From positions 27,192 to 91,191 of the forward strand of contig PS015106.1 of NCBI GenBank assembly GCA_048213135.1: DNA of 64,000 bases, in the 5' to 3' direction. Positions 5,377 through 54,557 of this stretch are shown here, piece by piece. The notes under the pieces are model-generated. The model worked only from the letters and a program-made list of their open reading frames with translations. It made no database searches and was not told where the DNA came from. Within the stretch, counting starts at the first letter, position 1. The number at the start of each line of letters is the position of its first letter. Source of the DNA: Reclinomonas americana ATCC 50394 (Eukaryota). A program made the position numbers and the translations under genes.

Positions 5377-5755
5377 GGTGACAGTGAGGAAAGAAACGGC
5401 GAGGGAAGAGAGAGCCGCGCAGGACAGTTCTTCGGAAGGCGACTTCATGCAGATGTCGTGATGGCAAGCACAAGCAGGTGCGTAAAGGCAGCTGCTAAGT
5501 GTTCCCACCTGCACTTCTGCAAGCGATCTGCATCGAAGATGCGAGAGACCACCTGCTGCTGTCGATGGATTCATTGGCGATGTTCCTTGGATATCGATGA
5601 TCATGATGGCTTGCAGCTCGGTTGCCTTTCTTTACACTTCCTTCCTTCCTTCCTTTTTTTAAAAAAATAATAATAATTATAGTAGTAGTATACGTAGTAG
5701 TATAGTCCAAGGTAGAGTGACCTGACCATCATGATATCATCAGCACCATTCATTA

Positions 5756-8390
5756 CACAGCCAGGACCATAGTGAGCCGTCCGGCACCGTATTTGCTGGG
5801 CTTTCCTTCCACTTCACCGTCCGGTGCCGTATGAGTTGGGGAAGACGGTTTACCGTTGGACCTTCGTCCATGCGGTGTCGGTACGGTGAAGGGCAAAGCT
5901 CGAAGAGAGCCGGCGCTGGACAGTTCGGCTGTCGCCAGCGATTCCGATGCCGTCCGGCCACTCACCGCCACCTGAGTCTCCGTACGGCACCGTGACCATT
6001 GTTCTGCGCCGCCGGACGGTGCCGTCCGGCTACTCACCACTCCCACGAGTCTCCGAACGGCACCGTCTCCAACATCGTGAATCACCGAACGGTGTCGCGA
6101 GAATGCATGGCATCCTCACGCATTGATCACGCATCACGTGCACCACTCGAGCCCAGCCATGCACGTGAGCATTGCGAGACCACGACCATTGTCGCTTCGT
6201 GATCACTCGCCAGCGCAGCGGCCAGCGGGCAGCGTGCCATCTTCTGCATGTGCGCTGCAATGGTGTGGTGCTTGTGTTGATGCATCTCTCGCGCAACAGT
6301 CGAATCCACTGTCGATATGGACGAGCGGTTGGCATGCTCTTTGCCACAGTGTCGTGGATGGCTGCTGCAGCAGTGCAGCACTGCCACTGTTTCTTTGTGA
6401 GTGAGCATTCTGCCATTCCACTGTGATCAACCAACGACTTGTCTCTCTTGTTCGCTTGCATGTGCGCGCAGAAGTCGCTCTCCGTGTGTCAAGCACAGAG
6501 TTGTGCTGTCCGTCTCGATCATGTTCACTACTCACGCTGCTTGAGCCTCTGCCGTCTTGGCGTGGTAAGAGAGTGTTTTTTGTTGTTTGAGCATTTTTCC
6601 GCTGTGCTTCCTTGCTCACCCTTGTTCATGCCTGCGTATCCTTGCGTCGAGACAGGCTTCTCCAGCACACACTCAGTGATGCATGTGAGAGTGGCCCACT
6701 NNNNNNNNNNNNNNNNNNNNNNNNNNNNNNNNNNNNNNNNNNNNNNNNNNNNNNNNNNNNNNNNNNNNNNNNNNNNNNNNNNNNNNNNNNNNNNNNNNNN
6801 NNNNNNNNNNNNNNNNNNNNNNNNNNNNNNNNNNNNNNNNNNNNNNNNNNNNNNNNNNNNNNNNNNNNNNNNNNNNNNNNNNNNNNNNNNNNNNNNNCTG
6901 CACCTTGGCACTCTGCACCCTTGGTGCGTGCCTTGCTACCTGCGAGCTCGTGGTAACGCACATCATGCATGATCTCTTTGAGGTTTGGCTGTTGTGGTGT
7001 CCTCGCACACACTTCTCATCGCATGTGAGCACTCGTAACCACTTGCGCCATCTGTTCTCTCTCTCGTCGAGCAGCTTTGGCACCAGTGCTGCAATGCTCG
7101 TCATGCAGCGATCGGTGTGACTGAGCCTGTTTCCAGGAGCCCTCATTGGACCTGGCCCGTCACCTTCTCCGCAGCGTCGTCTTCATTGTTACGTGTTGAC
7201 ACCGTTGCAGTGCCACTCGTGTCGTCGGTATCCATGAGTAGTGCGTGCTCCCGGCGACTGTGATGTGCGCCGTGGTGTGCTGTTTTGTGGCAGACATGTC
7301 TCCTGGTGCTTTCTCCGTTCTCGACGAGGTGAGCAAAAATCTGTGCAAGTGCCATGTGCTGCATGATCACGGTTGGTTGACACTGAATCGCAGTGGCTTC
7401 TTGCTCAACCGAGCAACAGCATTGACGATGGTGCATTCGAAGGAACCAAGTGGCACAGATAGTACATTCGGTTTGATGGTGAGTCTCACTCTCTTCAGCC
7501 CTCCTGCTGACTTGATGCACTGGCGCATTGCGAGACACTGCGCACTATACGAACTGCACGTTCTAATACAATGTTCGCCGTGCAGATACTCGCTCATCTT
7601 CGTGGAGGCTCAGTGGAGTTCGTTTACGGCAATGTGTTTCAAGACTTGACTGCATCTCTGCCGGATGACGGGTGCTTGCGTCCCCGCTTGACGGTGGATC
7701 GGTTGTTTACGACCGTGCCCAGACTTGCTTGTGGAACGCTTGTGACGCTGGATGGCTCTTTGCATGTGCACCTTCCGAGCTGTTACAAGGAGGAGGTCGA
7801 TCTCGTCTGGTGACGGTGATGCGGAGGTGCTGGATCCTTCTGGGGTGGAGCTGGATTGTGTTTGCTTTTCGTGTGCCACCGATTACTGGGTGATGGATGC
7901 TTCTCGTGATTGGTGGCGCTTCCTGGGTCAACACTGTGTGGAGGACTTCACGAGTTTCCGACTCTGGCGTTTTTCTTTGTTTTTTCTCTCGTAGAGCATT
8001 TTGTATGAGCATGAGTGAATCCGTTGCCTGTTGTAGATGGTGGGTAGTGGGGCGAGGGAGTGCATGCAAAGCGGAGCGGGGGGCGGGGGGCGGGGGCGGG
8101 GCAGCCCCGGCTAAAAATGGGCACCGTCCCGGCACCGGACGACGCCGGATGAGCTTCATTCAGCAGAACTGGTGAGTTTTTTTCTCCTTATTTGTCGATT
8201 GCCGGAAGTATTAGGGACGGTCTAAGTGACAGAACGGTGCCGTTCGGCGTCGGGACGGTACCGTGGACGGTACCGTATTCATTCGTTGCATGTAAGGGTT
8301 CACTAAGGGAGGATTTTCACCGGACGGTGCCGGACGGCACCGTTGCCGAATTGATACGGTGCCGTACGACACGGGACAGTCCTGGCTGTG
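5756..8390. mobile_element. TIR DNA transposon, probably CMC/EnSpm (CACTA-like), possibly internally deleted
   Basis: 12-bp TIR CACAGCCAGGAC...GTCCTGGCTGTG. TA duplicated at 5754-5755 and 8391-8392. Empty site (cattaggttt) is seen at ~10456-10465. Many subterminal ACGG(T/C)(G/A)CCGT motifs lie at both ends. Confidence 0.9.
6898..6982 (+). pseudogene. Possible EnSpm-type transposase fragment
   Basis: Reads ...LVVTHIMHDLFE, resembling the D.MHDL.EG motif of EnSpm-like transposases. No complete ORF is reconstructable, and it adjoins a gap. Confidence 0.35.
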
Positions 8391-8521
8391 TAGGTTTACT
8401 TTTCTACTGCGCATGCAGATAGTCTTCCTGCGCTGCGATCGTACGCGTCGAGCGATTCCTGTAGCGGCATCCATCGTCGCTGATCAATCATGAATCCATG
8501 GCGCCCACCACCGATCCATCA

Positions 8522-8955
8522 TCAATCATCGATGAAACCATCGACAGCGCTAGCAGCAGGTGGTGTCCCACAAGCTCTGTGCACATGATTCGCGGCATGC
8601 ACGGTGTTGACGTCGGCATGCGCAATGGCACTGCGAATGACGGCGAGCAAGTTGTCCTCAGAAATGCCGTGATACCACTCTTGTGTATCGGCAAGCTGAT
8701 ATCCTTTTTTTCGAAGAATGGCATGAGCACGATATTCCGCATCCAGTCGACGTTCTGCTGACACCTGATGTCGCACAACAATGTCTGGATTGCCAGTCCT
8801 CAGTTGCATGTGACGCCTCTCCACGTCGTCACTGCTGCCGACTTTGAATCGGCGTCCGTCTCGGCAGTTCGGACGGGGATGAACGTGTGTGTCGGTCATG
8901 ATGTACACGAAACCTGGGCCGTTGCGGGTATTTCCCAGTCTCTGTGCATCACATT
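8522..8955 (-). CDS. GIY-YIG superfamily nuclease, T5orf172/MUG113-like domain
   Basis: GFVYIM...FKVGSSDDVERRHMQLRTGNP...AEYRAHAILR...TQEWY follows the T5orf172 pattern (VY, KVG.S, R..QL.TGNP, E..AH, EWF/Y). There is no upstream ATG in frame, so it may be spliced to the neighbouring ORF. Confidence 0.75.
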
Positions 8956-9050
8956 CTCAGCAGCATGTCAAAGTGCTCTTGCAGCCCTAAGGAATCGGGG
9001 TTCTAACAGTAAAAGCCTCAAGAATACGATGCAGGACGCGGCTCAACCAC

Positions 9051-10187
9051 TCAACTGGTACTTGAGGTATCTGATTGCAAGGTGTCAGAACACAGCCTAG
9101 ATCCGGAGAGGAGCTCGAGCATACACAGAGAACAAAAATCAAGCATCGGATTCACCTCGCGATCGGCTGCCCACTCGGCCGGCGCCATCGCCATTGGAGC
9201 CTGCGGTCGCACAGGCGCAACCACTGCCGACTCTTCCTCGTGCACGGCAACAGTCTGCTCCACGGCGCCGGCTGCGCCTGCCACTAGTACTGCAACTGCT
9301 TGCAATTGCCCGGCCATCGCCACCATGGCCACAGCCGGCGCCTGCTCGTGATCGGCCTCTTCTCCGGCAACAATTGCAACCTGCACATGCTCCACGGCTG
9401 CATCGAATTCTTGCCTGGGCGCCGGCATGGGCAACGGCGCTGCCGCCGCGAGCTCGGCCTCATGATCAAGATCGATATCGATATCGTGCCTGTTCACTTG
9501 CGCTTGATCCGAAACCACAGCTGCCTGCGCATGCACATCCTCCGGATCTTCTCCTTGGCCGGCCACCACCATCGGCGGCGCAACATCGTCAGCAGCCAAG
9601 TGCAACGCAGCAACATGGGTGCTAATGTCGTACGGAGCAACCACTTGCGGCGGATCCTCCGGCGCTTGCGCGGGCAGTTCACCCTCAGCGACGTCGACTT
9701 CGAGTAGTTCGCGTTCCAGTTGCAATTGTGCAAATAATGTTTCGATGGCCTCCTGTGCTTCCGGATCCAAATCCATGACCGGTACCTGCAGATCCGCGAG
9801 CGCCTGTTGACCCCTAGCGGCAATTGCAGCCAATCGCGAAGCCGTACGTTCTTGTATCTCTCGCAAGTGCCGTGCGAGCAAGCATGAGTGCAGTAGCAGC
9901 CTCATTCTGACGCCTGTTCGGGGGCGCTCATTGACTAAACTCAACCACTCACTGAGGTGGCCCTGCGTGTCACCGGCGAACTCGGCGAGCTCTCGCTGAG
10001 TGTGCCCTACTTGCCAAAGCCAGTGAACCAGACGCCGACAGCTATCCATTGTTATTATTGGATGCGGCAACTCGAGTCCTATCTCAGCAGCACCACGAGC
10101 AATGTCTTCTTCAAGACGCTGTCGTCGAGGGTCAGTCATGGTCAACCTGCGGCGGCTGACCGACGAGAGCTCCGAGATCTCCGGCAC
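9051..10187 (-). CDS. Unknown protein with N-terminal XRE-like helix-turn-helix and Ala/Val/Glu-rich tail
   Basis: Long open frame. GHTQRELAEFAGDTQGHLSEWL resembles an HTH_XRE. Probable GTGAAT donor near 9155. Confidence 0.55.
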   Translation of the reverse strand: MPEISELSSVSRRRLTMTDPRRQRLEEDIARGAAEIGLELPHPIITMDSCRRLVHWLWQVGHTQRELAEFAGDTQGHLSEWLSLVNERPRTGVRMRLLLHSCLLARHLREIQERTASRLAAIAARGQQALADLQVPVMDLDPEAQEAIETLFAQLQLERELLEVDVAEGELPAQAPEDPPQVVAPYDISTHVAALHLAADDVAPPMVVAGQGEDPEDVHAQAAVVSDQAQVNRHDIDIDLDHEAELAAAAPLPMPAPRQEFDAAVEHVQVAIVAGEEADHEQAPAVAMVAMAGQLQAVAVLVAGAAGAVEQTVAVHEEESAVVAPVRPQAPMAMAPAEWAADREVNPMLDFCSLCMLELLSGSRLCSDTLQSDTSSTS

Positions 10188-10270
10188 TCCGATGAACAGG
10201 ACACGCCGCTGCGGGACGTTATCGACGTGAAACAGATATGACAGTGCGCTGATCAGCTTTGTCCAACGGG

Positions 10271-10620
10271 CCTGCTGTCGATGGATTCATTGGCGATGTT
10301 CCTTGGATGATCATGATGGCTTGCAGCTCGGTTGCCTTTCTTTACACTTCCTTCCTTCCTTCCTTTTTTTAAAAAAATAATAATAATTATAGTAGTAGTA
10401 TACGTAGTAGTATAGTCCAAGGTAGAGTGACCATCATGATATCATCAGCACCATTCATTAGGTTTACTTTTCTACTGCAGATAGTCTTCCTGCGCTGCGA
10501 TCGTCGAGCGATTCCTGTAGCGGCATCCATCGTCGCTGATCAATCATGAATCCATGGCGCCCACCACCGATCCATCATCAATCATCGATGAAACCATCGA
10601 CAGCAGCAGGTGGTCCCACA
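10271..10620. mobile_element. Copy 2 (uninterrupted) of ~350 bp MITE-like repeat
   Basis: Direct repeat of 5552-5755 + 8393-8572. The right TIR is intact and the left TIR is truncated. Confidence 0.8.
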
Positions 10621-10837
10621 GAAGAGCGGATTTATCATGCCAGTTACGCCCGTTTCCTCGCCAACTTCATACGTATTCCGATGTTCGCACCTGCCTGTAC
10701 GCTCACTTCTTCTGCCGCTTGCCCATCTGCACCTTTGCAAGCAATCTGCATTGAGCATTGTGTCTGATGCACTTGCATGCATGAACATCGATCGAGAGTT
10801 ACGCCCACTTCATTTTCCGCTATGCTGCCCTTCACGC

Positions 10838-11800
10838 TTACTTCTTCTGCCGCTTGGTCTCCGGCGCCCCTTCCTCCTCCTCATCACCCGCTCGCTTACG
10901 CGATGCACTGCCCTCCTCGCCACCCTCTGCCTCCTCGCCCTCGCTGCCATCATCATCATCATCATCACCAGCAGCTGCATCGCCATACTCCTCATCGTCC
11001 TCATCGTCNNNNNNNNNNNNNNNNNNNNNNNNNNNNNNNNNNNNNNNNNNNNNNNNNNNNNNNNNNNNNNNNNNNNNNNNNNNNNNNNNNNNNNNNNNNN
11101 NNNNNNNNNNNNNNNNNNNNNNNNNNNNNNNNNNNNNNNNNNNNNNNNNNNNNNNNNNNNNNNNNNNNNNNNNNNNNNNNNNNNNNNNNNNNNNNNNNNN
11201 NNNNNNNNNNNNNNNNNNNNNNNNNNNNNNNNNNNNNNNNNNNNNNNNNNNNNNNNNNNNNNNNNNNNNNNNNNNNNNNNNNNNNNNNNNNNNNNNNNNN
11301 NNNNNNNNNNNNNNNNNNNNNNNNNNNNNNNNNNNNNNNNNNNNNNNNNNNNNNNNNNNNNNNNNNNNNNNNNNNNNNNNNNNNNNNNNNNNNNNNNNNN
11401 NNNNNNNNNNNNNNNNNNNNNNNNNNNNNNNNNNNNNNNNNNNNNNNNCTTACCAGTGGGGCCAGGGCGTCGACACTGCGGAACTTGTTTGCGGCGAGTG
11501 AGAGGGCGACGAGCTTTGGCAGTGCTGCAGAGGCCAAGTGCTCCAGTCCATCTTTCAGGTAGTTGTCGTCGAGAGACAGCTGCATGTGGAAGGCGTTGTG
11601 TGTGTGTGTGAGAGAGAGCGAGTGTGTGTGTGTGTGTGTGTGTTTGTGCGCAACTCGGACGAGTTCCGGAAGTGATGGGAAGCCCTCGAGTGACTTGAGT
11701 TTGCACACGTTCAACTCGAGCACTTGCAGCTTGTTGGCCAGCTCCTCGCCCAAGTCAGCCACCGCAGGCACGCGTGGCAACTGAGTGCAAGAGTGAGATA

Positions 11801-12051: not shown

Positions 12052-13179
12052 ATGGACGGCCCTCAGTTGACAGCGGTGTGTGTGTGTGTGTGACTCTTGC
12101 TCTCTCTTACAATGCATGTGGTCTTCTCAGTCACTGATTGTTCTCTAGCTCACTCTCTCTTCTCTTCTCCTCACTCTCTCTGCACCCATGTGTGTATGCA
12201 GTCTCATCCTCCTTCTCTTCCTCTTCCTCACTCTTCCTTTGTTCTTCTTCATCTTCTCTGTCTCTTATTGCTCTCCTTCATTCTCTTCTTCTTCTTTTCC
12301 TTCCCGTTGTTCTTTTTCTTGTTCTTCTTCTCCTTCTTCTTGTTCTTGTTCTTGTTCTTGTTCTTGTTCTTCTTCTTCTTCTTCTTCTTCTTCTTCTTCT
12401 TCTTCTTCTTCTTCTTCTTCTTCTTCTCCTTCTTTTGTTCTTCTTCTTCCTCCTCCTCTTCCTCCTCCTTGTTGTGCATGTTCTTCCTCTCCTTGTTCAT
12501 CTTCTTGTTCTTCTTCTTGTTCTTCTTCTTGTTCTTGTTCTTCTTGTTCTTGTTCTTCTTGCTCTCCTGCTTCTTCTTCTTCTTCTTCTTTCACTTCTTC
12601 TTCTTCCTCTTCTTCCGTGCCTTCTTCTTCCTCTTGTTCTCCTCCTCCTCCTCCTCCTCCTCGTTCTTCTTCATCTTCCTACATGTTCTTCTTCACCATC
12701 TTCTTCTCCTCCTTCCGTTCTTCGTCTTCTTCCTCTCCTTCTTCGTGTTCTCTCTCATCCTGCTCCTCTCCTCCTCCTCCTCCTCCTCCTCCTCCTCTAT
12801 CTCCTTCTCCTTCTCCTTGTTCATCCTGTTCCTCTTCCTCCTCCTTGTCCCTCCCTCTCTCTTCTCACCCCCTTCCCTCATTCAGGGAGAAGAGCAACTC
12901 CTCAACCAAGAGTACATGGCCATCGTGCTGCAACGGTGGAGCGAGGTGACCGAGCGATGCTTCAACGCGTGTGTGAATGATTTCCGGCAGCGGGATATGT
13001 CGTCGGGAGAGGAGGATTGCGTGCGACGATGCGTCTCCAAGCATCAAAAGTTCTTCTCGCGTGCCGAGGATCGGTGGACGCGCATCTCCACCGATGAGCA
13101 GATGCAGTTGCAGCAGCAGGGTGGATTCTTTAATCAGCAGCAGCAGCAGCAGCAGCCACCGCAGGCGCCGCCTTCGTGA
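12052..13179 (+). CDS. TIM9: Small Tim chaperone, Tim9-like (exons 12052-12075, 12886-13179)
   Basis: Twin CX3C motif: ERCFNACVNDF...EEDCVRRCVSK. Poly-Q C-terminus. Confidence 0.85.
12200..12880. repeat. Compound (TTC/TTG/TCC)n microsatellite filling the TIM9 intron
   Basis: Directly visible pyrimidine-rich tract of about 700 bp. Confidence 0.9.
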
Positions 13180-34070: not shown

Positions 34071-37000
34071 TTATTCCTCGCCGGAGCGAGGCAGTTGGAG
34101 TGGTGCCAGTCTAACTGGCACAAAATGCCTCCCTTCATCCCCAAGCTCACTCGGGTCACTGGAATCGAAAAAGGCGGAGTTTGTGACGCCGGTTGGCGAC
34201 ATGGTTGTGGGCGACAGCGGCTCCGCGTCCAAGGCCGCTCCATCGATCTCGGCCTCGTCAAGCACACTGGCGACGATTTCGAAATTCACGCCGCGTCGAC
34301 ACCACTCGCGCACGTCAAGGCCGTCGACTGCCTCGTGCTCGAGGCCGGCAAACTGGCCTTCGTCAATGTTCGACGAGCCGGCAAGCAGGACCACAAACTC
34401 GTCAAAGTCAATGCACTGTAAGCAGCAAAAGGCGAGTCTGTGTCAGCAGTTGCACAGAGAGCGGAAGTGAGAGATTTTAGGCACGGGTGCACGCAACTCC
34501 GTCGCCGTCGTCGTCAAACTCTGTGGTCATGGCCACGAGGTCGGCGTACGACCGCATCTCCCCGACTTCTTCGAGAATGGCACGCAGTTCGTCCTGGTCG
34601 ATCTTGCCACTGCCGTCGGCATCGTACGTGTTGAACACCTCGCGCAGCTCTTCCACCGAAGACCCTTGCAGCGATGACACANNNNNNNNNNNNNNNNNNN
34701 NNNNNNNNNNNNNNNNNNNNNNNNNNNNNNNNNNNNNNNNNNNNNNNNNNNNNNNNNNNNNNNNNNNNNNNNNNNNNNNNNNNNNNNNNNNNNNNNNNNN
34801 NNNNNNNNNNNNNNNNNNNNNNNNNNNNNNNNNNNNNNNNNNNNNNNNNNNNNNNNNNNNNNNNNNNNNNNNNNNNNNNNNNNNNNNNNNNNNNNNNNNN
34901 NNNNNNNNNNNNNNNNNNNNNNNNNNNNNGGTTGCTGCTCATATGTAACGCTGCGCAACTTTTGCATATCGTCCTTCGAGATGACAAAGGTGGCCTTGCG
35001 GTACACGTGCCCGAACTCGTCCAGAATAATGGCCACCACCAGGTTGAGGAACACAAAGGCCAGGAAGGCGTACACAAACACGAAGAATATGTACACCAGA
35101 GCCGGTTGGCCGCAGTTGGGCTCCGCACAAAACGGTTTTTGCACCGCAAGGTCGCGCATGACGCACTGCCAGTTGTCGGCTGAGGGGGAGCGCACGTGTC
35201 ACAAGGGCGGTAAAACAAACGCACAGCGGTTATAGACACAAAAGACGAAACCAGTTGTCACCCGCATGACCGTCAAGAAGGCGGGCACGAAGGAGCGGAA
35301 GTTGGCCTGTCGGTTGAGGCAGCTGCCGAAGCGTACGGTGCCGAACTGTTGCACGCCGAGTGTCGCGAAAATCACCACAAAGATGAAGAACACAAATGTG
35401 GTGTTGATCAGTCGCGGCAGCGCGGAACTGTACGAAAGTTCGAGGGTTAGACGCAGATATAACACGGCGTTCTCGTCGAGCAGTCAGGGAGCACGCAACA
35501 TCAAGGTCTCGAAGATGAGCCGCGTCGGCCGGTAAATGTGCACGAGACGCAGAATTCGCAAGATGCGCGAAATGTCTTGAATGGCGTACCCCACCGACGC
35601 CACCTCAGACACACTGCTGAATGTCATGAACCAGCCGAGCCAGGAGCCGACAATGATGGAAAAGTCAAACACATGCCATCCCGATTGCATGAAATATCCG
35701 CTGTGTGCAGATAGGCAGACGCATCCTGTCAGTCTCGCGCAGCAACTCTAAAGCACGCACAAATTCAATAAGAAAACGCACCCTGGTAGATAGGCTGTCA
35801 TGCGAATCACGGCTTCGACAGTGAACACGGCGAGGAACATGAAGTTTCCGATGTTGATGGCATCCGAGACAGCCTGCGACTGACCAAAGTGGCGCACTGC
35901 CAACAGGGCGGTGTTGCCGACCACACAAAAGAGGATGGCACTGCATCGCGCACAATATTATCGAATGCTGTCTTTCTTGTGAAGAGGCAAGAAGAGCAGC
36001 AAGAGAGACGCAACGGCTCAAACCACTTGCTTTCGCAGCAAGCCAATGCCAGTTTACGGACGCGGCTGCGCGCTTCGCGTGCCGTCGGTGGCAGTGCCTG
36101 GAGCAGAATGCCACGTCGAATGTCGCGCCACGCACGCTGCGTATCGGTGAGATACGCAGTACCCACTTGCATTTGCATGTTCTGAACCACGATGGCGATG
36201 AAGATGTTGACCAGGAAAAAGTTGGCGGTGAGCACGAAAGCCACAAAGAACACCGAGTAGTAGGGGGCGCTGTTGGTGACCGGTGCCTGGCCTTGGCCTG
36301 TCATGCTGGTCGTGGCCCACAAGACCGGTGTCCAGTTGCTGAGAGTGGATGACTCGAACAGAACCAGCAGCGAATTGGCGGTGTTGTCGAAATTGTAGTA
36401 TGGTGTCTTCCACGTGCGCGGAGCCACCACTCCAAGCGAGTTGGTGTAGTAGCCGAAACAACTGGTCTGATTGAGTGCACTATCGCTGCATCGGTAGAGA
36501 CCGCCAGCGAACAAGTTGACGCCAAACAGGGCAAACAGGAGGTAGATGAACAAGCCGACAATGGCGACGTTGAGTAGCTGACTGGAGGCCTTGCCGAGAG
36601 ATTCGAGCACAACCTGTGCGCCTGGGAGGAGAGAGACAATTGACGGTAAGGGAGTGACGGCGATGTGATGCAGAGAACAAAACGCACCTCGATTCCGTTT
36701 GAAGAGACGGAGTACTTTCAAGCAGCGAAGCGCGTCGAAACCGGCAATATGCAGCAATTCACCGTACAGTTCGATGAGCAGCAGCAGATCCAGCCAGTTC
36801 CACTTGCTACGCAGATAGCCGTCGGGGCTGAAGAGGACGCCGTGTGCCACTGTCTTCAACACAAAGTCCAACGAGAACACCACCGCCAGCACGTAGTTGG
36901 TGATGTTGAGTGCACGCAACACATCCGGCGAGTTGTCATCGTCAGCGTGATTCAGAATCAGGAACGCCAGCGTCACCAATGTGGCCAGCAACACTGTCCA

Positions 37001-40000
37001 GTTCCACACCGTGGATTCCACCCACACATGAGCGATTTTGCGGACGGTGTTGTTGGGCCCGAGCCAGCCGAACGAATAATCGGGGAATTGGTTGTCTGCA
37101 AGCAAGTGCTGTGCGTGAGCCATCACCCGATACACAGCTACCTTCCATAGCAGTGACGCAACTCAAGATCGACTTGTACCGATCAGTCTCGCCCAGACCA
37201 TTCAGCCTAGTCACCTTGGTCATGCTGCAGTGATCGATGATCAGACAACATAGTTCTGGCATGGCGGTGCACACGACAGTAAGGGCGGTTCCTCACCTGC
37301 TCATCTTGTCGTCCTTCTTAGGCGCTTTTTCCGGATCCACATCGTCAACTGCTTCCTCTTCTGCCTGCTCAACGACGAAGCCGCAGCCAATCAACAGACT
37401 GCGACCGCACGTCCGCTTCGTCGGTTGCTTGATCTTGCGAGCGCGAACAGTAGTCTTTTCCCATCGTGAGGCATCGTAGTACATCTTGCAGCGGCGCTCG
37501 TACTCCTCTGGGGTCTGTCCCGGTGGTCCACTGTCATCCGAACCTATCAGCAAACCACAGAGCTTGTGAGTTGTCTTCTCTTACAGAACACAGGCTGACT
37601 TTGCAACATGTATCCGCAACTCGACGAAGAGGAATAACCGTCGTCGTCGTCCTCTGGCTCGCCCTTCTCGGACGGAATCGCAGCCGATTGAACAGATGCC
37701 GCTGACACCAGAAGCGTCGGCTTGTTGGCTGCCGACACGAACAAACTGTCGGTTCGTGACTTGCCAAACTGCGCAATGTTGCTCGTGCTGTCGGCCATGC
37801 TTCCGACAGCTGGCAGCACCTTGCCACGCGTGCTCTGCTTGGACGACGGTCGTGAGCTCTGCTTCGATGACGGCCGTCCACTCCTCCGCGCCGTGTGTTC
37901 CTCTCGCGGCTGGCAAAACATGATGCGGAACAGTCGTCGTAGCGCCATGTAGAGGCGGAACAGGGTGGTGATAGGCAACTGCGCAGTGTTCACACGCACA
38001 CCAACATCAGTCAACATGGATCACCAAAGAGGAGTGTGGGAGGAATGCGAAACCTTTCTCTTGCCGCTTGCCTCGACATCCATCACCTCCTGCTGCTGCA
38101 TGCGCTGCTTGGTGTCTTGGTCGACATCGAACGCCTCGACGATGATGGCCAAGAACAGGTTGATGACAATGACTGGTGAGAGAAAGCACAAAGCAGTGTG
38201 AGACTGCCTGTGGATTCCACCCTTCCAAAATCATCACAGCATACGCAACATTTGGCAAAGAGAATGTAACACACAAAGTAGAGGATCGTCGACAACAGGC
38301 GCTCGCTCATCAGTGGGTAAATGAGATATGGCCAGCCGTCTGCCGACATTAGCTGGAACGGAAGCGTTATCATGCGTGTGAGAAAGAAGACGGATGACCA
38401 TAGACTGCTCTTGAAGCCTGCAGCACAGACCTGAAATGCAACAATCAAGGCCTCCCAAAAAGTGGTAAACTGCCCGTACGATGTCGGAATGACCAAGTCG
38501 CCGAACAACTGCATGCCGATGATGCCGAACACGATCAACACAAAGGCGATGAAGATGAACACGTTGAGGATGCCTTCGATCGAGTTGCTGAGCTTGCTCT
38601 GTTGAGTGACGCAACACAGAACAGTGCAGGTGTAAGCAAGACAGATAAACAGTATGCGTCTGCGTTTGTATGACACGCCACGCACAATCAGTTCTCGTGG
38701 TCCCTTGAGACGCCGGAACAGTTTGAACAGGCGGAGCAAACGGAACGAGCGCAGCAGACTGAGATTCGACGAGGCCAGTACGACGCTGATTACCGAAGCG
38801 ACCACCACCACGAAATCAAACAGGAAGCGCCCTGGATGCCACACATCTAGCAGTTAGTCGCACTGACATTATGAAGAAAAGGAACGAGAACGAATGCCGC
38901 ACCCCAGCGGAAGTACTCGAGCGGGTTGCCGAGTGCGCACATGATGAGAACCATCTCCAGCGCAAACACGCAGGTGAATGCGATTTCCGAAATGTCTGCG
39001 TCACGGACGCAGAGCAGTTAAGTATCGCGCCCAGCGAGAAGCACTCACGAGCGCAAACGCACTGAGAAGTTCCATGAGTGCGTTGTCGGCCGGATATCTG
39101 TAGAGCACCATGAACGCCGTGTTGGCCACTGTGGGAAAAGAGGGGGAGTGGTCAGATGCAGTTCAACTGGGTAGATGATCTGCCTACGAACCGATGAACA
39201 AGCTGATGACAATCTCAAACGATGGCGACAGAATCCAGCGCTGAAGTCTGTGGACCCATTCGTAGCTGCCAATCAGGCGCATGCGGCTGAGCGGAGTTAC
39301 TTCGTCTTCCACGTCGATCACAACAACGGTAGAGATGTCCTCGGTACTCTTGGTGCGTCCAAACGCCACTGAGTTTCCCACACTCGGTCGTGCTCCTGCC
39401 GGCCACATTTCTCCCACAGAAGTGCTCGAGTACTGCACAAACAAGTGAGCGACATGCTGGTGGTGGCAGGAGAAGAAACAGGAGTACATCCACGAACCGC
39501 GCCGCCAGCCATGATGCGTCGACGAGCGACTTCCGCCAGTTCCTGTCAGCATCGAGTACAGTGAGTCGCTTATAATGCATCATTGTCGGAAACGCAGTCG
39601 CTGCTGACCTCTGAAGTAATCTGCAGAAACGAAATGCAATGCGCAGAAATGAGAAACGTTGCGAAAACACAGATTTCAGACGAAAAGAACTCACTCCTCG
39701 GGCTCGCACAAGATCTTCCTCCTGATCAGGAAGCTGAAACGACATACGGAAGAAATGAGTTGAACAAGCTGTGAAGGTATTGAGAAGGCGAAAGGGATTC
39801 TGCTACGCACCGACTCCACCGACAACTGGTTCTGACTCGGGACAATCTGCAGAGGCTGCAACACATGTGAGAAAACCAGAGACAACATTGGAGGAGTGAC
39901 GTTTTTTGCTTCACATACCTGCACACTGGCGGCGTCATCCCTGCTTGAGAATCCCTCACTCACCTGCGACTTGCGTCGCACAACGCGCACTGTCGCCTGC

Positions 40001-42250
40001 TGCACAGAGCCCGATCTGGCCGACTCTGCATGACCCATAGAGTAACATGAGAGACTGACGCGCTCGCAAGATGCCCTCTTTTCCACACACGTACCCAGCG
40101 GATTGGGCGACAGGCGGTCCGTGAGTAGTGGCGATTGACGACCTTGCAGTCGCGGAGAAATGCCGCCGCGGAGGGTGACCGGATTCGGCGCCTCGACCGC
40201 TTCTGCGTCGAGGAGCGACGGCACACTGCGTTCCGTCATCAAGTCCGGCGTGACCGCACGAACACGGTTTCCGACAGATTGTGCGTGCCGCGCGGACAGC
40301 AATGTCGACGGTCGCCGTGCCGATGCCAGGAGACTAGCTTCGGTGAGAGTCGCTCCAGGCAGATTCGACTCCGCCACTCTCTCGACCGCCTGCGTCGGCG
40401 GGGGCGCCCATTGATCGGTAACGGGAATGCGGGTGAAGTCGTATGAGCTTCGCACGTCCACGTCAGCCACCGATGCCCGTCGAATGCCGGCAAGCGATCC
40501 ACGCCGTACGACTACAAAGTCGGGTCGTGGTGACGTCTGCGCGTCGTTGATGTCGTGTCCTTCCAGGCGCACGCGGAAGCCGATGCGGCTGTCTCGTCGA
40601 CTCATGTTTCGCTGGGAGAACTTGGCACTGATGGCAGCCACTGACGACCTTCGTCGTGGCGTGGATGCACTTCCCGGAGCTGCGCTGTCCAGTCGTCGTT
40701 TTGAGCTGTTGTATGGTGCTCATTTTTCAGTGACCATTTTCTGCAGTGACCGCGCACACAACAGAGATAGATAAACAAACCTCTGTTGTGACACAAAGCC
40801 GGATTCACCACGGGCACGAATGCGTGCAAACGTCTCACTGATCACGGCGACGAAGAGATTGACCGCGATGCTGCATTGGTGTCGCAGGCAGGTGAGACAA
40901 GGAAATGTAACGCGTTGTCGTGAAAGCCGCCCAGCGCACGCAACAAGCAAAGCAGCACCACAAGAATCATGTTGTACAAGAGGCTGTAGGAGAATGTGGC
41001 ATCCATCTGCGTGCAAGACAGTGTTAGAGCGCTCGTGTGACGCATGCCGGCGGCGTTTCAAGCGCACGGCACGTGCAGACCTCGGCATACATAAAGTCGG
41101 TCCATCCGATTAGTGTCAGCGTGTGCAACACCGCCATCATGGCGCTTCCCATGTTGTCAAAGTGCGCAAAGTATGGAGGATTTCCGTAATCCTGTGCATG
41201 TACACGGAGGTGAGTGAGGGCAAGTCGCGCGCATTCATATTTCGGAAGCTATCAACAAGACGTACCGCCATGCACTGCTGCTGACCGGGACATTGAAAGC
41301 CCTGTGTGCCTTGTGGTGGAACATACGGCGGCTGGGATGGATACGAGCGTGCTGTCGTTTTCCAGTGCACACCGACCACGAAAACTGCCGCTGAACATCA
41401 CCAGGCCAATGATTGCAAAGAGCGTCACCGTGACCAGCAGGAAGAGGGAGACGTTGATCAGCAGCGACAGAGACTCGCGCAGGCTCTCCAGGATGGCACG
41501 CATGCCCTTCAGCATCTTGATAGCGCGCAGCGGTCGAATGGCACGCAGCGCACGAATGGCCGACAGTGAGACACTCACTTCGGCGGTCATGGCAATCCAC
41601 GAAGTGACCAGAATGATAAAGTCCAAGCGGTGCCACGGATTCCGCAGATACGAGTGTTTGTGCAGCACTGCTCCGAGTGCCACTATTTTCAAGCCCACCT
41701 CCGCCGTGAAGAAGACCAGCATGTAAAAGTCAATCTGGTACAGCACGTGCTGAAAGCCCTTGGCCGATGACATGGTCAAACGCGGGTCCTCGGCCGCCAG
41801 CGTCACCACACTGAGAATCACCACGGTGTAGACGATAAAGTCGCACACTGGATGGAAGAGTGCAGCAGCGAGCCACTTGCGAAACACGTTGTCGGCCGAC
41901 ACCAGCCACAATGAGCGTGAATGGAGCTCATATTTCGGTTCTGGTGCCACGGGTGCTGCTGCTGCTGCTGCTGCTCCTCCCGTGTCGTCCGTCGATATGT
42001 TGGAACTGCTGGTGCGACGTGCGGGCGAAGCGCATCGTGAGGCGTTGCGCGTGGCGGTGGCCTGCGGGGTTCACACAGCATGCGTTGGCAATCAGTGTGG
42101 GGTGAGTTTTGGGACACGTGCACTCACCGGACTCTTCAGCTCATCCTCTGTGAAGAACTGCACCGACTTGCGCTGCACTATCGGCGCAAGCGACAGATGT
42201 TGCCTCGGCGTGGTGCCGAGGCCGCCACTGCTCTCACTTGTCAGTCCATC
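34071..42250 (-). CDS. Four-domain voltage-gated cation channel (Cav/Nav/NALCN-Cch1 superfamily) with C-terminal EF-hands
   Basis: Four S4 segments (AIRALRAIRPLRAIK; LLRSFRLLRLFK; ALRCLKVLRLFK; ISRILRILRLV), four S6 segments (NLFVAVI, NLFLAII, NIFIAIV, NLVVAII), pore loops, and EF loops DADGSGKIDQDE and DDDGDGCIDFDE. The start is uncertain and there is one frame break at ~41300. Confidence 0.92.
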
Positions 42251-49287: not shown

Positions 49288-52200
49288 TCATTCCTCGGCA
49301 TCGCCTTCCTCGGCATCCTCCTCCTCTCCGTCCTCCTCTTCCTCTTCCTCTTCCTCTTCGCCCTCTTCGGCAGTCCCGTCGATTTCGCTGTCGTCGCCAT
49401 GATCCTGAGCGCTGGAACGGCCGCTCTCTTCACCCTCCTCTGGGGTCTCCACAAGACGCACTCGTCGCTGTCGCGCGCTGCCCGGCGATTTCATAGCCGA
49501 CGGTGGAGATGGTTCTGTCGCCGGCTGCTGGATGAGCTGCACGGCTTGCTGCAGCAGATTCACCGTCTCCACCGCGTACGCCGTACGGTAGCCCTCAAAC
49601 AGACGCGTACCACCAGGTAGCGCGCTACTGAATGATTTGGATCGGCGTGGCGCCGCAGTGCGACGCGAGGCAGCTGGTGGTGACTGCGGCCATCGGATCG
49701 CTACTCCGCGCGGCGACTGGGCGGTGTCAGTGGAGATCTGTTGCGGACGCTGCGGCAACTGCGCAGTGGATCCTTGCGGTCGCAGCAGTGTTCCCGGCGC
49801 ACGCGCACCTCGATCATCACCTGCCGTCAGCAGCTCTGGCATCGGGAACTCAGGAACTGGTGCAATCGCTGCTTGGCGTGACACTGGACGCCGGTCGTTG
49901 TTGGGGCTGTATGTCGCAACACAAAGGTCATCATCCTTGTCTCAGCGACGCATTCCTTCGTGTGCATACACAGTACCTTGTGAGCCGCGGCGATGCAGGC
50001 GGCGATGTGAGGCTTCTGGTTGGCGAGAACCCTCGCGGCGCACTGGGTGGGCTCGACGAGCGAGGTGACAGGAGTGACGATGATGGTCGCCCACCCTCTG
50101 CCGAAGTCAACAGCCGACTCTCACGTGCTCCGCCCTCGCCGCCACGAGGCGACGGTGCGGCGCCCGCTTGCGCCTACAACCAACAAAACGCAGTCAACAC
50201 CCACGGTACACAAACCACTGAATAAATGGAACCAAATACTGACCGCCAGAGTCGAGAGATACGACGAGCGCGGGGGTGCTGCCTGGCGGCGGGGCGAAGA
50301 AGCCTGCTCGACACTCTCACCAGCTTCGTCCGCATCGGCGGCCGCGCGTTGACGAATCGAGTACAGAGAGCCAAGAGGCGAGTCCACCGACAGCGGCTGT
50401 CGAACAATCTTGTCACTCTGCCACTGGTGCTCATGCGTTCTGCAACCCGGTACGCGCGTCAGCAAAACTCGCACGCACATGCATGCTGCGTGGGCGGAGA
50501 CGCAACGATCGGTACACTGAACTGAGTTGATTACGCCCGTCACGGATCTACGACGACGAGTCAGAAAACGAGAACACATCAAGCGGACAATGTCGACACA
50601 AATCCCTGCTACCTTCAGCTCGCCAACGTAGCCAGTCGTTGGGAATTCTGGCGGTTGCAGTCGAGGGAAGGGAAGTGGCGGCGGCAGGCGCCGCGGTGGC
50701 GACACGCTCGATTCCGGACTCTGGCCAGATTTCTGTTGCGCGCGCAGGTTCTCTGCCAGCTGACGCATAATGTCGTCTGTGCTCTCAGCCGAATCCACTG
50801 CCGACGGAAGTCGACGACGACGCGGCGGAGATACATCAAACGGAAGTCGCAACTCGGCCTGCTCACGGTCCAAATCAGCCGTCGACTCTCGAGGCGGCGA
50901 AACACGTGCACGCTCGCGTTCAGCGGCCGCCGGTCGTGGAGCTCGCTTTCCGGCACGTCGCTGCACTGGAGGCGAGGGAGAGCCAAATGGGGAAGCCTCC
51001 AGAGCTGCATCAGCGGCCTTGGAACGCTTCCTCCTCCGTGTTGGCGATGAGTGCAACGGCTGTGAGAAAAAAGGAGCCGAGTCAGACTTGTGGGTGCCAC
51101 ATGGAGTAAGGAGCAATAACATGCCGAAGCACCTCAGCCTCGGGAGGCGGCGGAGTTGGCGGTAGCGGCGGTGGAATGCGCTCTGGATCTCGATCCACGG
51201 CAGCAAGCAGCTCTCCACCTATCGGAGACGGCGACGACGTCTGCCACGGAATCAGTTCCTGTGTGCATGTGCAGCACATGTGAGTGCCGACAATGACGCG
51301 CAGAGCAGAGATCGCAAGTGGCTGGCCGACGAACCTCCGGTTCGGTACGCTCAGTCGCTGTCGGAGCCACTTCGTTGGCTGCGCCTGCAGCTGCACTGCC
51401 GCGCTTGCCAGTCTTACCACCAACTTTCCGAGACGACGGCGACACCGATCTGGAAGATCCCTTTGTGGTCTGCGTGCATCAAATGAGCAACGGCCACACA
51501 ACGACTGATAGACATCCGTAATAGACCCCCCGCAATACCTTGTCAACGACGTCTTGCGCGGCGCCCACCTTGGCCTTCTTGCCTTTCTTGCCACTTCTCG
51601 GCGATGCCAGTGCCTCAGCCGCATCGTCACCCGACTCCTCCGCTGCCGCAGCCTTCTTCTTGTCCTCTCTGCCTTCGCCGCCCGTCTCCGCACCATCCTC
51701 CTTGTCAGTTGCACCAGCGTCCTCCTCCCCCTCCTGTACCGCAGCCTTGGTCTTATTCCCCTTCTTGCCACTCTTCGGCGATGCCTCACCAGCCGCCGCC
51801 TCGTCACCCGACTCCTCCGCAGCTGCACCCTTCTTCTTCGCCTTGCCACCCTTTTTGCCCTTGCCAGTAGGAGTCTTCGACTCCTCAGCCTCACCCTCCG
51901 TCTCGGCGCCATCCTCCTTGTCAGTTGTGCCAGCTTCCTCCTCCCCCTCCTGTGCCGCAGCCTTGGTCTTCTTCCCCTTCTTGCCACTCTTCGGCGACGC
52001 CTCACCAGCCGCCGATTCGTCACCCGACTCCTCCGCCGCCACGCCCTTCTTCTTCGCCTTGCCACCCTTCTTGCCCTTGCCAGTGGGAGTCTTTGACTCC
52101 TCAGCCTCACCCTCCGTCTCGGCGCCATCCTCCTTGTCAGTTGCGCCAGCCTCCTCCTCCACCTCCTTTGCCGCAGCCTTGGTCTTCTTCCCCTTCTTGC

Positions 52201-54521
52201 CACTCTTCGGCGACGCCTCACCAGCCGCCGATTCGTCACCCGACTCCTCCGTCGCCACGCCCTTCTTCTTCGCCTTGCCGCCCTTCTTGCCCTTGCCAGT
52301 GGGAGTCTTTGACTCCTCAGCCTCACCCTCCGTCTCGGCGCCATCCTCCTTGTCGGATACACCAGCCTCCTCCTCCACCTCCTTTGCCGCAGCCTTGGTC
52401 TTCTTGCCCTTCTTGCCACTCTCCGGCGATGCCTCACCAGCCGCCGATTCGTCACCCGACTCCTCCGCAGCTGCACCCTTCTTCTTCGGCTTGCCGCCCT
52501 TCTTGCCCTTGACAGTGGGAGTCTTCAACACCTCAGCCTCACCCTCCGTCTCGGCGCCATCCTCCTTGTCGGTTACACCAGCCTCCTCCTCCTCCTCCTT
52601 TGCCGCAGCCTTGGTCTTCTTGCCCTTCTTGCCGCTCCTCGGTGATGCCTCACCAGCTGCCGATTCGTCACCCGACTCCTCCGCAGCTGCACCCTTCTTC
52701 TTCGGCTTGCCGCCCTTCTTGCCCTTGCCAGTAGGAGTCTTTGACTCCTCAGCCTCACCCTCCGTCTCGGCGCCATCCTCCTTGTCAGTTGCGCCAGCCT
52801 CCTCCTCCACCTCCTTTGCCGCAGCCTTGGTTTTCTTCCCCTTCTTGCCGCTCCTCGGCGACGCCAGTGCCTCAGCAGCAGCAGCCTCGTCACCCGACTC
52901 CTCCGCAGCAGCACTCTTCTTCTTCGCCTTGCCGCCCTTCTTGCCCTTGCCGCCCTCTTCCACTTCAGCAGGCGTTGGCGGCGCAGCTTCCTCGACGGCA
53001 GCATCCTTGGTCTTCTTTCCTTTCTTGCCGCTCCTCGGTGATGCCAGAGCCTCTGCCGCCTCGTCACCCGACTCCTCTGCCGCCGCACCCTTCTTCTTCG
53101 ACTTGCTACTGCTGGTCTTCTTGCCGCCCTCTTCCGCTTCAGTGACAGGCGTCGGCGGCGCAGCCTCCTCGACAGCAGCATCCTTGGTCTTCTTCCCCTT
53201 CTTGCCGCTCCTCGGCGACGTCAGTGCCTCAGCAGCAGCAGCCTCGTCACCCGACTCCTCCGCAGCCGCACCCTTCTTCTTCGACTTGCTACTGCTCTTC
53301 TTGCCGCCCACCTCCGCTTCAGCAGCAACGGGCGTTGGTGGCGCAGCCTCCTCGACGGCAGCATCCTTGGTCTTCTTCCCCTTCTTGCCACTCCGCGGAG
53401 ACGCCAGAGCCTCTGCAGCCTCGTCACCCGACTCCTCCCCCGCCGCACCCTTCTTCGCCTTGCCACCCTTCTTGCCCTTGCCGCCCTCTTCCGCTTCAGC
53501 AACAGGCGTTGGTGGTGCAGCCTCCTCGACGGCAGCATCCTTCGTCTTCTTCCCCTTCTTGCTACCCCTCGGCGACGCCAGTGCCTCTGCCGCCTCATCG
53601 CCCGACTCCTCCGCCGCCGCACCCTTCTTTTTCGACCTACTACTGCTGCTGCTGGCCTTCTTGCCGCCCTCTTCCGCTTCAGCAACAGGCGTTGGTGGCG
53701 CCGCCTCTTCGACGGCAGCATCCTTGGTCTTCTTTCCTTTCTTGCCGCTCCTCGGCGATGCCAGAGCCTCTGCAGCCTCGTCACCCGACTCCTCTGCCGC
53801 CGCACCCTTCTTCTTCGACTTGCTGCTGCTGGTCTTCTTGCCGCCCTCTTCCGCTTCAGCAACAGGCGTTGGTGGTGCAGCCTCCTCCGCGGCAGCATCC
53901 TTGGTCTTCTTCCCCTTCTTGCCACTCCTCGGTGATGCCAGAGCCTCTGCAGCAGCAGCCTCGTCACCCGACTCCTCCGCCGCCGCACCCTTCTTCTTCG
54001 ACTTGCTACTGCTGCTCTTCTTGCTGCCCTCTTCCGCTTCAGCAGCAACAGGCGTTGGTGGTGGTGCCGCCTCTTCAGCAGCATCCTTGGTCTTCTTCCC
54101 CTTCTTGCCACTCCTCGGCGACGCAAGTGCCTCTGCAGCAGCCGCCTCGTCACCCGACTCCTCCGCAGCCGCACCCTTCTTCTTCGACCTACTACTGCTG
54201 CTCTTCTTGCCGCCCTCTTCCGCCTCAGCAGCAACAGGCGTTGGTGGTGGTGCCGCCTCTTCCGCAGCGCCCTTGGTCTTCTTGTCGCGCCGGCTGCGTG
54301 CCTTGTCGATCTCCTCCACTGCCGGAGAGGGTGCCTCCACTTCGGCTGGCACAGTTGCGCCCTTGCGACTGCTCCGCGGCGTCTCGGCGGTCTTTTTCGC
54401 AGCCACCTTGTCCGCTGCTGGTGCCGGTTGCGGAGGCGCCTCAACAGCAACCTCCTCCGGCGTCGAGACCTTCTTGTCCCTCCGACTGCTGCGCGGCTTC
54501 TCCGTGGTCGCGGCAGGCTCA

Positions 54522-54557
<36 letters not shown>

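Follow-up and report, generated by a model that had tools for sequence, protein, structure and literature searches.

The stretch analysed here is a 64,000-nucleotide window of DNA from Reclinomonas americana ATCC 50394 (contig PS015106.1, positions 27,192 to 91,191), in which positions 5547-10620 are occupied by a compact, mobile-looking unit that harbours a later, nested TA-site transposon. This unit has taken at least 24 small insertions in which a trinucleotide X is turned into X, its reverse complement and X again (X·rc(X)·X, a gain of 6 bp), and once the same change has involved a 4-mer (a gain of 8 bp). The insertions are densest inside the unit's own gene, and the excess is confined to the unit within the window. 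The best reading of their structure, to which we give a probability of roughly 0.4, is that they may be products of hairpin-type repair of breaks with 3-nucleotide staggers. A literature search of limited coverage returned no description of such X·rc(X)·X clusters.

The unit is located between host genes and is made up of a pair of 350-bp direct repeats, both with inverted ends of about 28 bp, arranged around one gene on the minus strand. Without the nested element it is 2437 bp long, and 1699 bp (8573-10271) lie between the repeat copies. The repeats and the nested element are placed as follows.

5547..5755, plus strand: left arm of copy 1, defined by alignment to 10272-10460, with the left terminal inverted repeat at 5547-5574
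5756..8392, no strand assigned: nested non-autonomous transposon of 2637 bp, with a TA target duplication and 12-bp inverted ends (CACAGCCAGGAC)
8393..8572, plus strand: right arm of copy 1, with the right inverted end at 8534-8567 containing the AGCGCT and GT insertions
10272..10620, plus strand: copy 2, with the right inverted end at 10588-10615 and a left end that is truncated or altered

Copy 1 without the nested element (5556-5755 joined to 8393-8572) was aligned with copy 2 (10272-10620). There are 380 columns and no mismatches in this alignment, and all of the differences are extra bases in copy 1, with no deletions among them. A previous interpretation of this DNA, made from the letters alone and called here the sequence-only reading, had stated that copy 1 departs from copy 2 by insertions only, and this holds throughout. 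The positions that it had given for four hexamers, the TGACC and GT duplications, two common motifs and the TA element were likewise all recovered. The small differences, together with the related motifs that are present in both copies, are listed below; none of them is assigned to a strand.

5590..5598: GAT-ATC-GAT, in copy 1 only, a 6-bp insertion where copy 2 has a single GAT
5598..5606: TGA-TCA-TGA, in both copies (also at 10308-10316)
5688..5696: GTA-TAC-GTA, in both copies (also at 10398-10406), interrupting a (GTA)n run
5718..5727: 5-bp tandem duplication of TGACC, in copy 1 only
5728..5739: ATCA-TGAT-ATCA, the 4-nucleotide version, in both copies (also at 10433-10444)
8408..8416: TGC-GCA-TGC, in copy 1 only
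8440..8448: CGT-ACG-CGT, in copy 1 only
8546..8554: AGC-GCT-AGC, in copy 1 only, within the right inverted end
8563..8566: 2-bp tandem duplication of GT, in copy 1 only, within the right inverted end

The events that are unique to copy 1 postdate the duplication of the repeat, whereas TGA-TCA-TGA, because it is found in both copies, records an event older than that duplication. There are 6 small insertions (four hexamers, TGACC and GT) versus 0 substitutions in the 349 aligned bp, in agreement with the earlier proposal that insertions accumulate here faster than point mutations. The direction of change can also be read from the repeats. There are three complete inverted ends, and the AGCGCT and GT extras are present in the right end of copy 1 and missing from the other two (the left end of copy 1 and the right end of copy 2). 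Thus, both extras are insertions in copy 1. Similarly, GTA repeats lie on both sides of the common GTA-TAC-GTA motif, which marks that event as an insertion as well. These comparisons show that the copy differences are insertions in copy 1 and not deletions from copy 2.

The 2437-bp unit has 28 X·rc(X)·X 9-mers, compared with 0.84 expected (a count reached in 0 of 200 shuffles). In the internal 1699 bp there are 20 of these 9-mers where 0.74 would be expected (a count matched in 0 of 300 dinucleotide shuffles), and Markov models of orders 1-4 predict 0.6-2.3 for the same region. There are 3 in the right arm of copy 1 and 3 in the left arm, each against an expectation of 0.09 (0 of 300 and 1 of 300 shuffles, respectively). 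Enrichment relative to shuffled sequence had been suggested as a check on the sequence-only reading, and both arms of copy 1 exceed chance. That reading had overlooked the 20 9-mers between the copies as well as the 4-nucleotide version ATCA-TGAT-ATCA.

The pattern is specific with regard to both length and form. For X of 3 nucleotides, the internal region has 20 occurrences versus 0.61 expected, for 2 nucleotides it has 9 versus 6.1, and for 4 and for 5 nucleotides it has none. A scan of the 2437-bp unit over all combinations of direct-repeat length (n) and number of palindromic bases (p) gives one class that stands out, with n = 3 and p = 3. The neighbouring classes with n = 3 and p = 1 (19 versus 20.1) or p = 2 (4 versus 6.1) are not enriched, and the class with n = 4 and p = 4 has 2 members versus 0.09 expected. 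The controls X·rev(X)·X and X·comp(X)·X, whose middle triplet is reversed or complemented, show no enrichment. The count of 6-bp palindromes is 66 where 32 are expected, and arithmetic indicates that overlapping 9-mers, contributing up to two palindromes each, make roughly the whole of this excess.

There are 15 X/rc(X) classes in use among the 24 events. In six of these 24, X is repeated beside the 9-mer, compared with about 1.8 expected on an estimate from the local density of triplet repeats, which hints weakly at a preference for pre-existing tandem triplets. With regard to recency, there are 20 perfect 9-mers and 31 that differ from the pattern by one change, for which 15.7 are expected. 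A related class is formed by 10-mers in which two copies of a 4-nucleotide X flank the reverse complement of its last 2 nucleotides. There are 17 of these versus 1.6 expected, and most of the excess is derived from the 9-mers. However, four examples (at 9272, 9289, 9424 and 10135) are not by-products of triplet 9-mers and, since they also correspond to a gain of 6 bp, could be variants of the same process with a 4-nucleotide stagger.

The events are distributed unevenly along the gene, whose parts are given here together with the zone of highest density.

8522..8941, minus strand: exon or open reading frame (ORF) of the T5orf172/MUG113 type by Pfam match (ORF 8935-8522), with one 9-mer, at 8616
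8942..9155, minus strand: provisional intron, the best of 10 possible GT-AG introns that would join the two ORFs in frame, with a predicted product of 467 amino acids
9155..9800, no strand assigned: hot zone inside the gene, with 16 events in 646 bp (2.5 per 100 bp)
9156..10139, minus strand: ORF with a part resembling a helix-turn-helix (HTH) domain and a linker rich in Ala, Val, Pro and Glu, 362 codons from 10139 to a stop at 9051

In the hot zone, 9-mers start at 9157, 9178, 9264, 9283, 9300, 9323, 9334, 9371, 9418 and 9460, continue in a run at 9471-9485, and start again at 9526, 9690, 9720, 9760 and 9778. Outside it, the T5orf172 exon (373 bp) and the provisional intron (binned as 8946-9154) have 1 event each, and there is none in either the 339-bp HTH exon or the 132-bp leader. 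The suggestion that the 350-bp repeat is a hotspot is not supported: the hotspot comprises the whole T5orf172 unit, and chiefly 9155-9800, and not the repeat as such. The 19 9-mers within ORFs fall 8, 2 and 9 times into the three codon phases, and the use of all three indicates a pattern at the level of DNA and not of codon usage. Since each event adds 6 bp, an open frame does not by itself prove selection.

Confinement was measured as the share of X·rc(X)·X among all 9-mers of the form X-Y-X, for which the chance level is 1/63, or 0.016. The shares are as follows.

Remainder of the window (54,631 bp): 0.015
Nested transposon: 0.014
Region between the copies, 8573-10271: 0.235
Hot zone, 9155-9800: 0.281
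Copy 1: 0.60
Copy 2: 0.286

The contrast corresponds to a Fisher odds ratio of 24.7 (P = 3e-23). Chance-level shares outside the unit indicate that the process is neither a genome-wide habit nor a property that the neighbourhood has had since the nested element arrived. Raw counts give a different impression, because the rest of the window contains 31 X·rc(X)·X 9-mers versus 14-16 expected under Markov orders 1-5. However, all X-Y-X 9-mers outside 5547-10620 are about 2.07-fold above the predictions of Markov orders 2, 3 and 5. A genome-wide process was considered on the basis of this twofold excess and was withdrawn, since the excess covers all X-Y-X words while X·rc(X)·X remains at its chance share. 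The window-wide excess presumably comes from low-complexity and periodic sequence, and it is a trap for tests of such motifs.

The T5orf172 part of the gene matches Pfam PF10544 with 30.8 bits (cut-off 20) and MUG113 PF13455 with 25.1 bits (cut-off 22.3), scores that place it in this family of the GIY-YIG superfamily, and the stop codon of the gene (8522-8524) is located in the right arm of copy 1. This ORF is 41% identical to the protein P0001 over 100 aligned positions; P0001, which one source names a GIY-YIG endonuclease, is longer and has an unrelated N-terminus. The GFVY, KVG, R and E motifs are visible by eye only, in the alignment with P0001. Searches with the same ORF gave no relative of comparable length, no match to a PDB sequence at E <= 10 and no NCBIfam match, and a single-sequence AlphaFold model (mean predicted local distance difference test score, pLDDT, 32.7) is unusable.

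The second ORF would be joined to the first by the putative intron at 8942-9155. Its HTH-like N-terminus is suggested by weak leads, namely phrog_4779 at E 0.0025 and an ESM Atlas score of 0.92 to small phage HTH clusters, and its linker contains the peptide motifs QLQ, VDV, DIDID and AGA. No relatives of the 362-amino acid ORF were detectable by a word-indexed search or by HMMER over 1.84 billion representatives. One HMMER candidate, P0002 (E 6.7e-4), was rejected as spurious, since it is a repeat protein that matches residues 307-343 only. There are no related loci for either ORF among the viral contigs searched, and metagenome scans gave 0 matches to the end pattern of the repeat and 0 confirmed matches with P0001.

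The structure of the insertions could be accounted for by a short series of steps. A double-strand break would leave two ends that finish with the same 3 nucleotides, each sealed as a covalently closed hairpin. Opening of the hairpins a few nucleotides off the tip would produce palindromic overhangs (P nucleotides). With X carried by both ends, these overhangs would overlap and yield, by our own derivation, precisely X·rc(X)·X, without a spacer at either of its junctions, and the single 4-nucleotide event would fit the same scheme. Artemis has a preference for 2-nucleotide hairpin opening. The proposed steps match the chemistry expected of cut-and-paste transposases that form flank hairpins when they act on a target with a 3-bp stagger. 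For hAT, Transib, RAG1 and a Mutator-like element (MULE), flank hairpins with subsequent end joining have been described (PMC5499845), and Table 1 of PMC4423477 gives variable 3-bp target duplications for CACTA elements. The spacer-less palindromes of the unit have the form that hairpin chemistry predicts on a 3-nucleotide duplication, and so the P-nucleotide-like form named in the sequence-only reading is retained.

The confinement of the events favours an agent that is tied to the unit, whether its own nuclease-family protein or a targeted enzyme, and not to a roaming family. To judge from the sequence, such an agent would explain why the host DNA is spared. Perhaps the HTH/linker/GIY-YIG-family protein of the unit, or an enzyme that it recruits, breaks the DNA of the unit in cis, and repair adds in-frame palindromic hexamers that lengthen and diversify the linker of the protein itself. 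We regard this self-targeted insertional hypermutation as distinctly doubtful.

Several points weigh against hairpin-type repair. The pattern, its enrichment, its direction and its confinement are established from the sequence, whereas the hairpins, the 3-nucleotide stagger and the agent are deduced; no hairpin, break or enzyme was observed, and there is a single locus, in a gapped draft. GIY-YIG nucleases are not known to form hairpins or to cut with 3-nucleotide staggers. The provisional intron and the leader together have 1 event in 341 bp, where the rate of the hot zone predicts 8.5 (P = 0.002). In addition, all 6 of the recent small insertions are in copy 1 and none is in copy 2 (two-sided binomial P = 0.03). 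Finally, footprints of flank-hairpin elements are usually heterogeneous (PMC6379663), whereas those of the unit are uniform.

One alternative is that the 9-mers are excision footprints of a roaming cut-and-paste family with 3-bp duplications, similar to CACTA, that inserted and excised here repeatedly. A 3-bp duplication followed by hairpin opening predicts X·rc(X)·X, with the P nucleotides enclosed as they are found, the enrichment is strong for k = 3 only, 3-bp duplications are recorded for CACTA elements (PMC4423477, Table 1), and another DNA transposon did insert in copy 1. However, no inverted-repeat pair with a credible 3-bp duplication is present in the 64 kb (the candidates have chance-like arms of 10-14 bp), there is no transposase domain in 145 ORF translations (12 of at least 200 amino acids and 133 of at least 140), and the target duplication of the nested element, TA, is 2 bp long. 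The sequence-only reading had proposed an element with a 3-bp target-site duplication, or else a hairpin-forming nuclease, as the agent, and the first of these is not sustained.

The distribution of the events presents a further difficulty for a roaming family. There is no excess of footprints in the 54.6 kb of host DNA or in the 2.4-kb nested element, and 16 hits in 646 bp would need either extreme targeting or some 20 consecutive, very local hops. Excision would also be expected to leave a spectrum that includes deletions and partial P additions, yet the n = 3 classes with p = 1 and p = 2 are flat and copy 1 has no deletions. The CACTA footprints reported in Arabidopsis (PMC6379663) are heterogeneous and vary within single plants, unlike the uniform events of the unit. 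Thus, a roaming family is an unlikely source, and the earlier interpretation as a whole is partly supported, with a plausible chemistry and a misjudged agent and target.

A second alternative is template switching during replication or repair, in which the polymerase reverses over 3 nucleotides and then returns, leaving a miniature inverted triplication. This would occur in a mode of replication peculiar to the unit, perhaps as a former episome or virus or through repeated gap repair. In form, X·rc(X)·X amounts to an inverted triplication. In rad27-deleted yeast, palindromes are created and extended, together with duplications, by template switching (PMC5677150), which is also proposed for larger inverted triplications (PMC4689423 and PMC11293582). 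The absence of the signature from host DNA and from the nested element, which arrived later, would fit a process that operated outside the present chromosomal context, and an HTH domain combined with T5orf172 is a virus-like gene make-up, although these are weak leads. Nevertheless, the inverted segment is fixed at 3 nucleotides in 24 events and at 4 in one, whereas template switches vary in length, and the priming inverted repeat or microhomology that they need is missing, by inspection, at most of the 24 sites. In addition, the events specific to copy 1 postdate the duplication, and there is no evidence that the unit ever replicated autonomously. We therefore consider template switching an improbable origin for the events.

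It is also conceivable that the long alleles are ancestral and that copy 2 lost its hexamers by deletion between 3-bp direct repeats, for every hexamer is surrounded by X..X microhomology and all differences lie on one side. This history is very unlikely, because the AGCGCT and GT extras are absent from two of the three complete inverted ends, the GTA-TAC-GTA shared by both copies breaks an otherwise pure microsatellite, and deletion leaves the invariant rc(X) middle triplet unexplained. An assembly or sequencing artefact is suggested by the draft state of the window, with its 13 N gaps, but has next to no plausibility: the right arm of copy 1, the gene and copy 2 lie within the gap-free contig 6898-11008, the 362-codon frame is kept open with events in all three codon phases, and no sequencing error mode is known to yield target-dependent palindromic hexamers. 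Selection for palindromes as protein-binding sites (HTH proteins often bind palindromes) or for a-b-a peptides such as the QLQ, VDV, DIDID and AGA of the linker is hardly credible, given that 15 X/rc(X) classes among 24 events leave no common site, that the 9-mers occupy all codon phases, and that the same events occur in the non-coding repeats.

The nested element has a TA duplication and inverted ends, and its empty site, with a single TA, is kept in copy 2. These are the features of Tc1/mariner-like elements, and it is probably a non-autonomous member of that group. It has many subterminal repeats of the GGCACCG/CCGGAC type and contains a gap of 197 Ns (6701-6897), and there are no Pfam matches and no transposase ORF among its ORFs. 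It does not carry the palindromic signature, with 1 X·rc(X)·X against about 0.7 expected. This element was considered as the generator of the insertions and was rejected, since its duplication is 2 bp and the signature is lacking.

The boundaries of the unit offer further information on what kind of element it may be. The inverted ends 5547-5574 and 10615-10588 agree at 27 of 28 positions and thus qualify as terminal inverted repeats, with the right end of copy 2 agreeing with the left end of copy 1. CCCACA beyond the inverted end is common to both right ends. The left edges differ, reading CTGCTGCTG in copy 1 and CTGCTG in copy 2, and one CTG, together with the outermost left bases, seems to be lost from copy 2. 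There is no target-site duplication at the ends of the 350-bp repeat, which is bordered by GCGAGA on the left and by CCACA on the right. The repeat was accordingly rejected as an element with a 3-bp target-site duplication, because no reading of the flanks yields one. The unit was likewise rejected as a long terminal repeat (LTR) retrotransposon or terminal-repeat retrotransposon in miniature (TRIM); direct repeats are present, but they have inverted ends of their own, and there is neither a reverse transcriptase domain nor a flanking duplication. A local repeat of about 150 bp is present in diverged form in the flanks at 5428-5536 and 10654-10754, and also at 10802-10872 (local alignment score 53, where 200 shuffles reach at most 32). 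It seems that the unit landed in a short tandem array or split one, and the likeness of its flanks is not a target duplication.

Comparison with known systems reveals partial likenesses. Footprints that involve P nucleotides or flank hairpins (hAT, Transib/RAG1, MULE and V(D)J coding joints) share spacer-less inverted flank bases with a direct target repeat on both sides. However, they form a spectrum with deletions, whereas the outcome in the unit is uniform (3 nucleotides, +6 bp), and its events reach 2.5 per 100 bp within 2.4 kb with no donor element. CACTA/En-Spm elements resemble the unit in their 3-bp stagger and in having no target sequence preference (15 X classes in the unit), but there are no CACTA-like ends, transposase or occupied site in the window. 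The topology of copy, inverted copy and copy is also that of origin-dependent inverted-repeat amplification (ODIRA), of duplication-inverted triplication-duplication rearrangements (DUP-TRP/INV-DUP) and of the events in rad27-deleted yeast. Those events range from tens of bases to kilobases, are variable and arise from pre-existing inverted repeats, unlike the 3 nucleotides and missing priming repeat of the unit.

As a gene, the unit recalls the free-standing GIY-YIG homing endonuclease genes of the I-TevI type, which are small, selfish intergenic genes with a DNA-binding domain, a long linker and a GIY-YIG-type domain. It departs from I-TevI in its reversed domain order, its T5orf172 branch, its eukaryotic nuclear setting and its probable intron. 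In outline, the unit is similar to composite or Pack-type transposons with terminal inverted repeats (TIRs) and to MITE (miniature inverted-repeat transposable element) pairs, in that a pair of short TIR-bearing repeats brackets a gene and the outermost ends are inverted. It differs from these in that no boundary has a target duplication, the copies are in direct orientation with 5-6 bp in common beyond the inverted end, and the outer left end of copy 2 is missing.

The window is gapped nuclear draft sequence, with 13 runs of N and introns rich in microsatellites. There are about ten genes in the 54.6 kb of host DNA around the unit, and host genes of the window include those for glucosidase II beta, a multi-domain ion channel, an EF-hand protein and BOP1. 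Three Ion_trans domain matches on the minus strand (35810-37162, 38086-38853 and 41255-42070) suggest that 35810-42070 is a single large gene for a multi-domain cation channel, with long introns. A Tim10/DDP zinc-finger match on the plus strand (12094-13176) adjoins a low-complexity tract rich in CTT and CTC (12200-12900), which the repeat search scored as dozens of overlapping copies. There are also tandem repeats of 174-216 bp, which form a long array at about 51480-55675 within stop-free frames of more than 1300 codons on both strands, with no Pfam match.

If the events are real and recent, the locus records a break-repair pathway with an almost deterministic product that is confined to one selfish gene. 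It would then be a tractable case for finding the enzyme of 3-nucleotide staggered, hairpin-type breaks, and the fraction of X-Y-X words that have the form X·rc(X)·X would provide a clean signature for screening whole genomes. The locus would also illustrate how a disordered linker can be built by in-frame hexamer insertions, and simple arithmetic (about 17 events of 6 bp) would assign some 100 bp of the linker to them. If a transposon family is responsible instead, the unit represents an extreme hotspot of insertion whose footprints are unusually uniform. Should the unit indeed act as a self-targeted insertional mutator of its own linker, a proposal that we hold to be a long shot, it would be of a kind not described for any mobile element.

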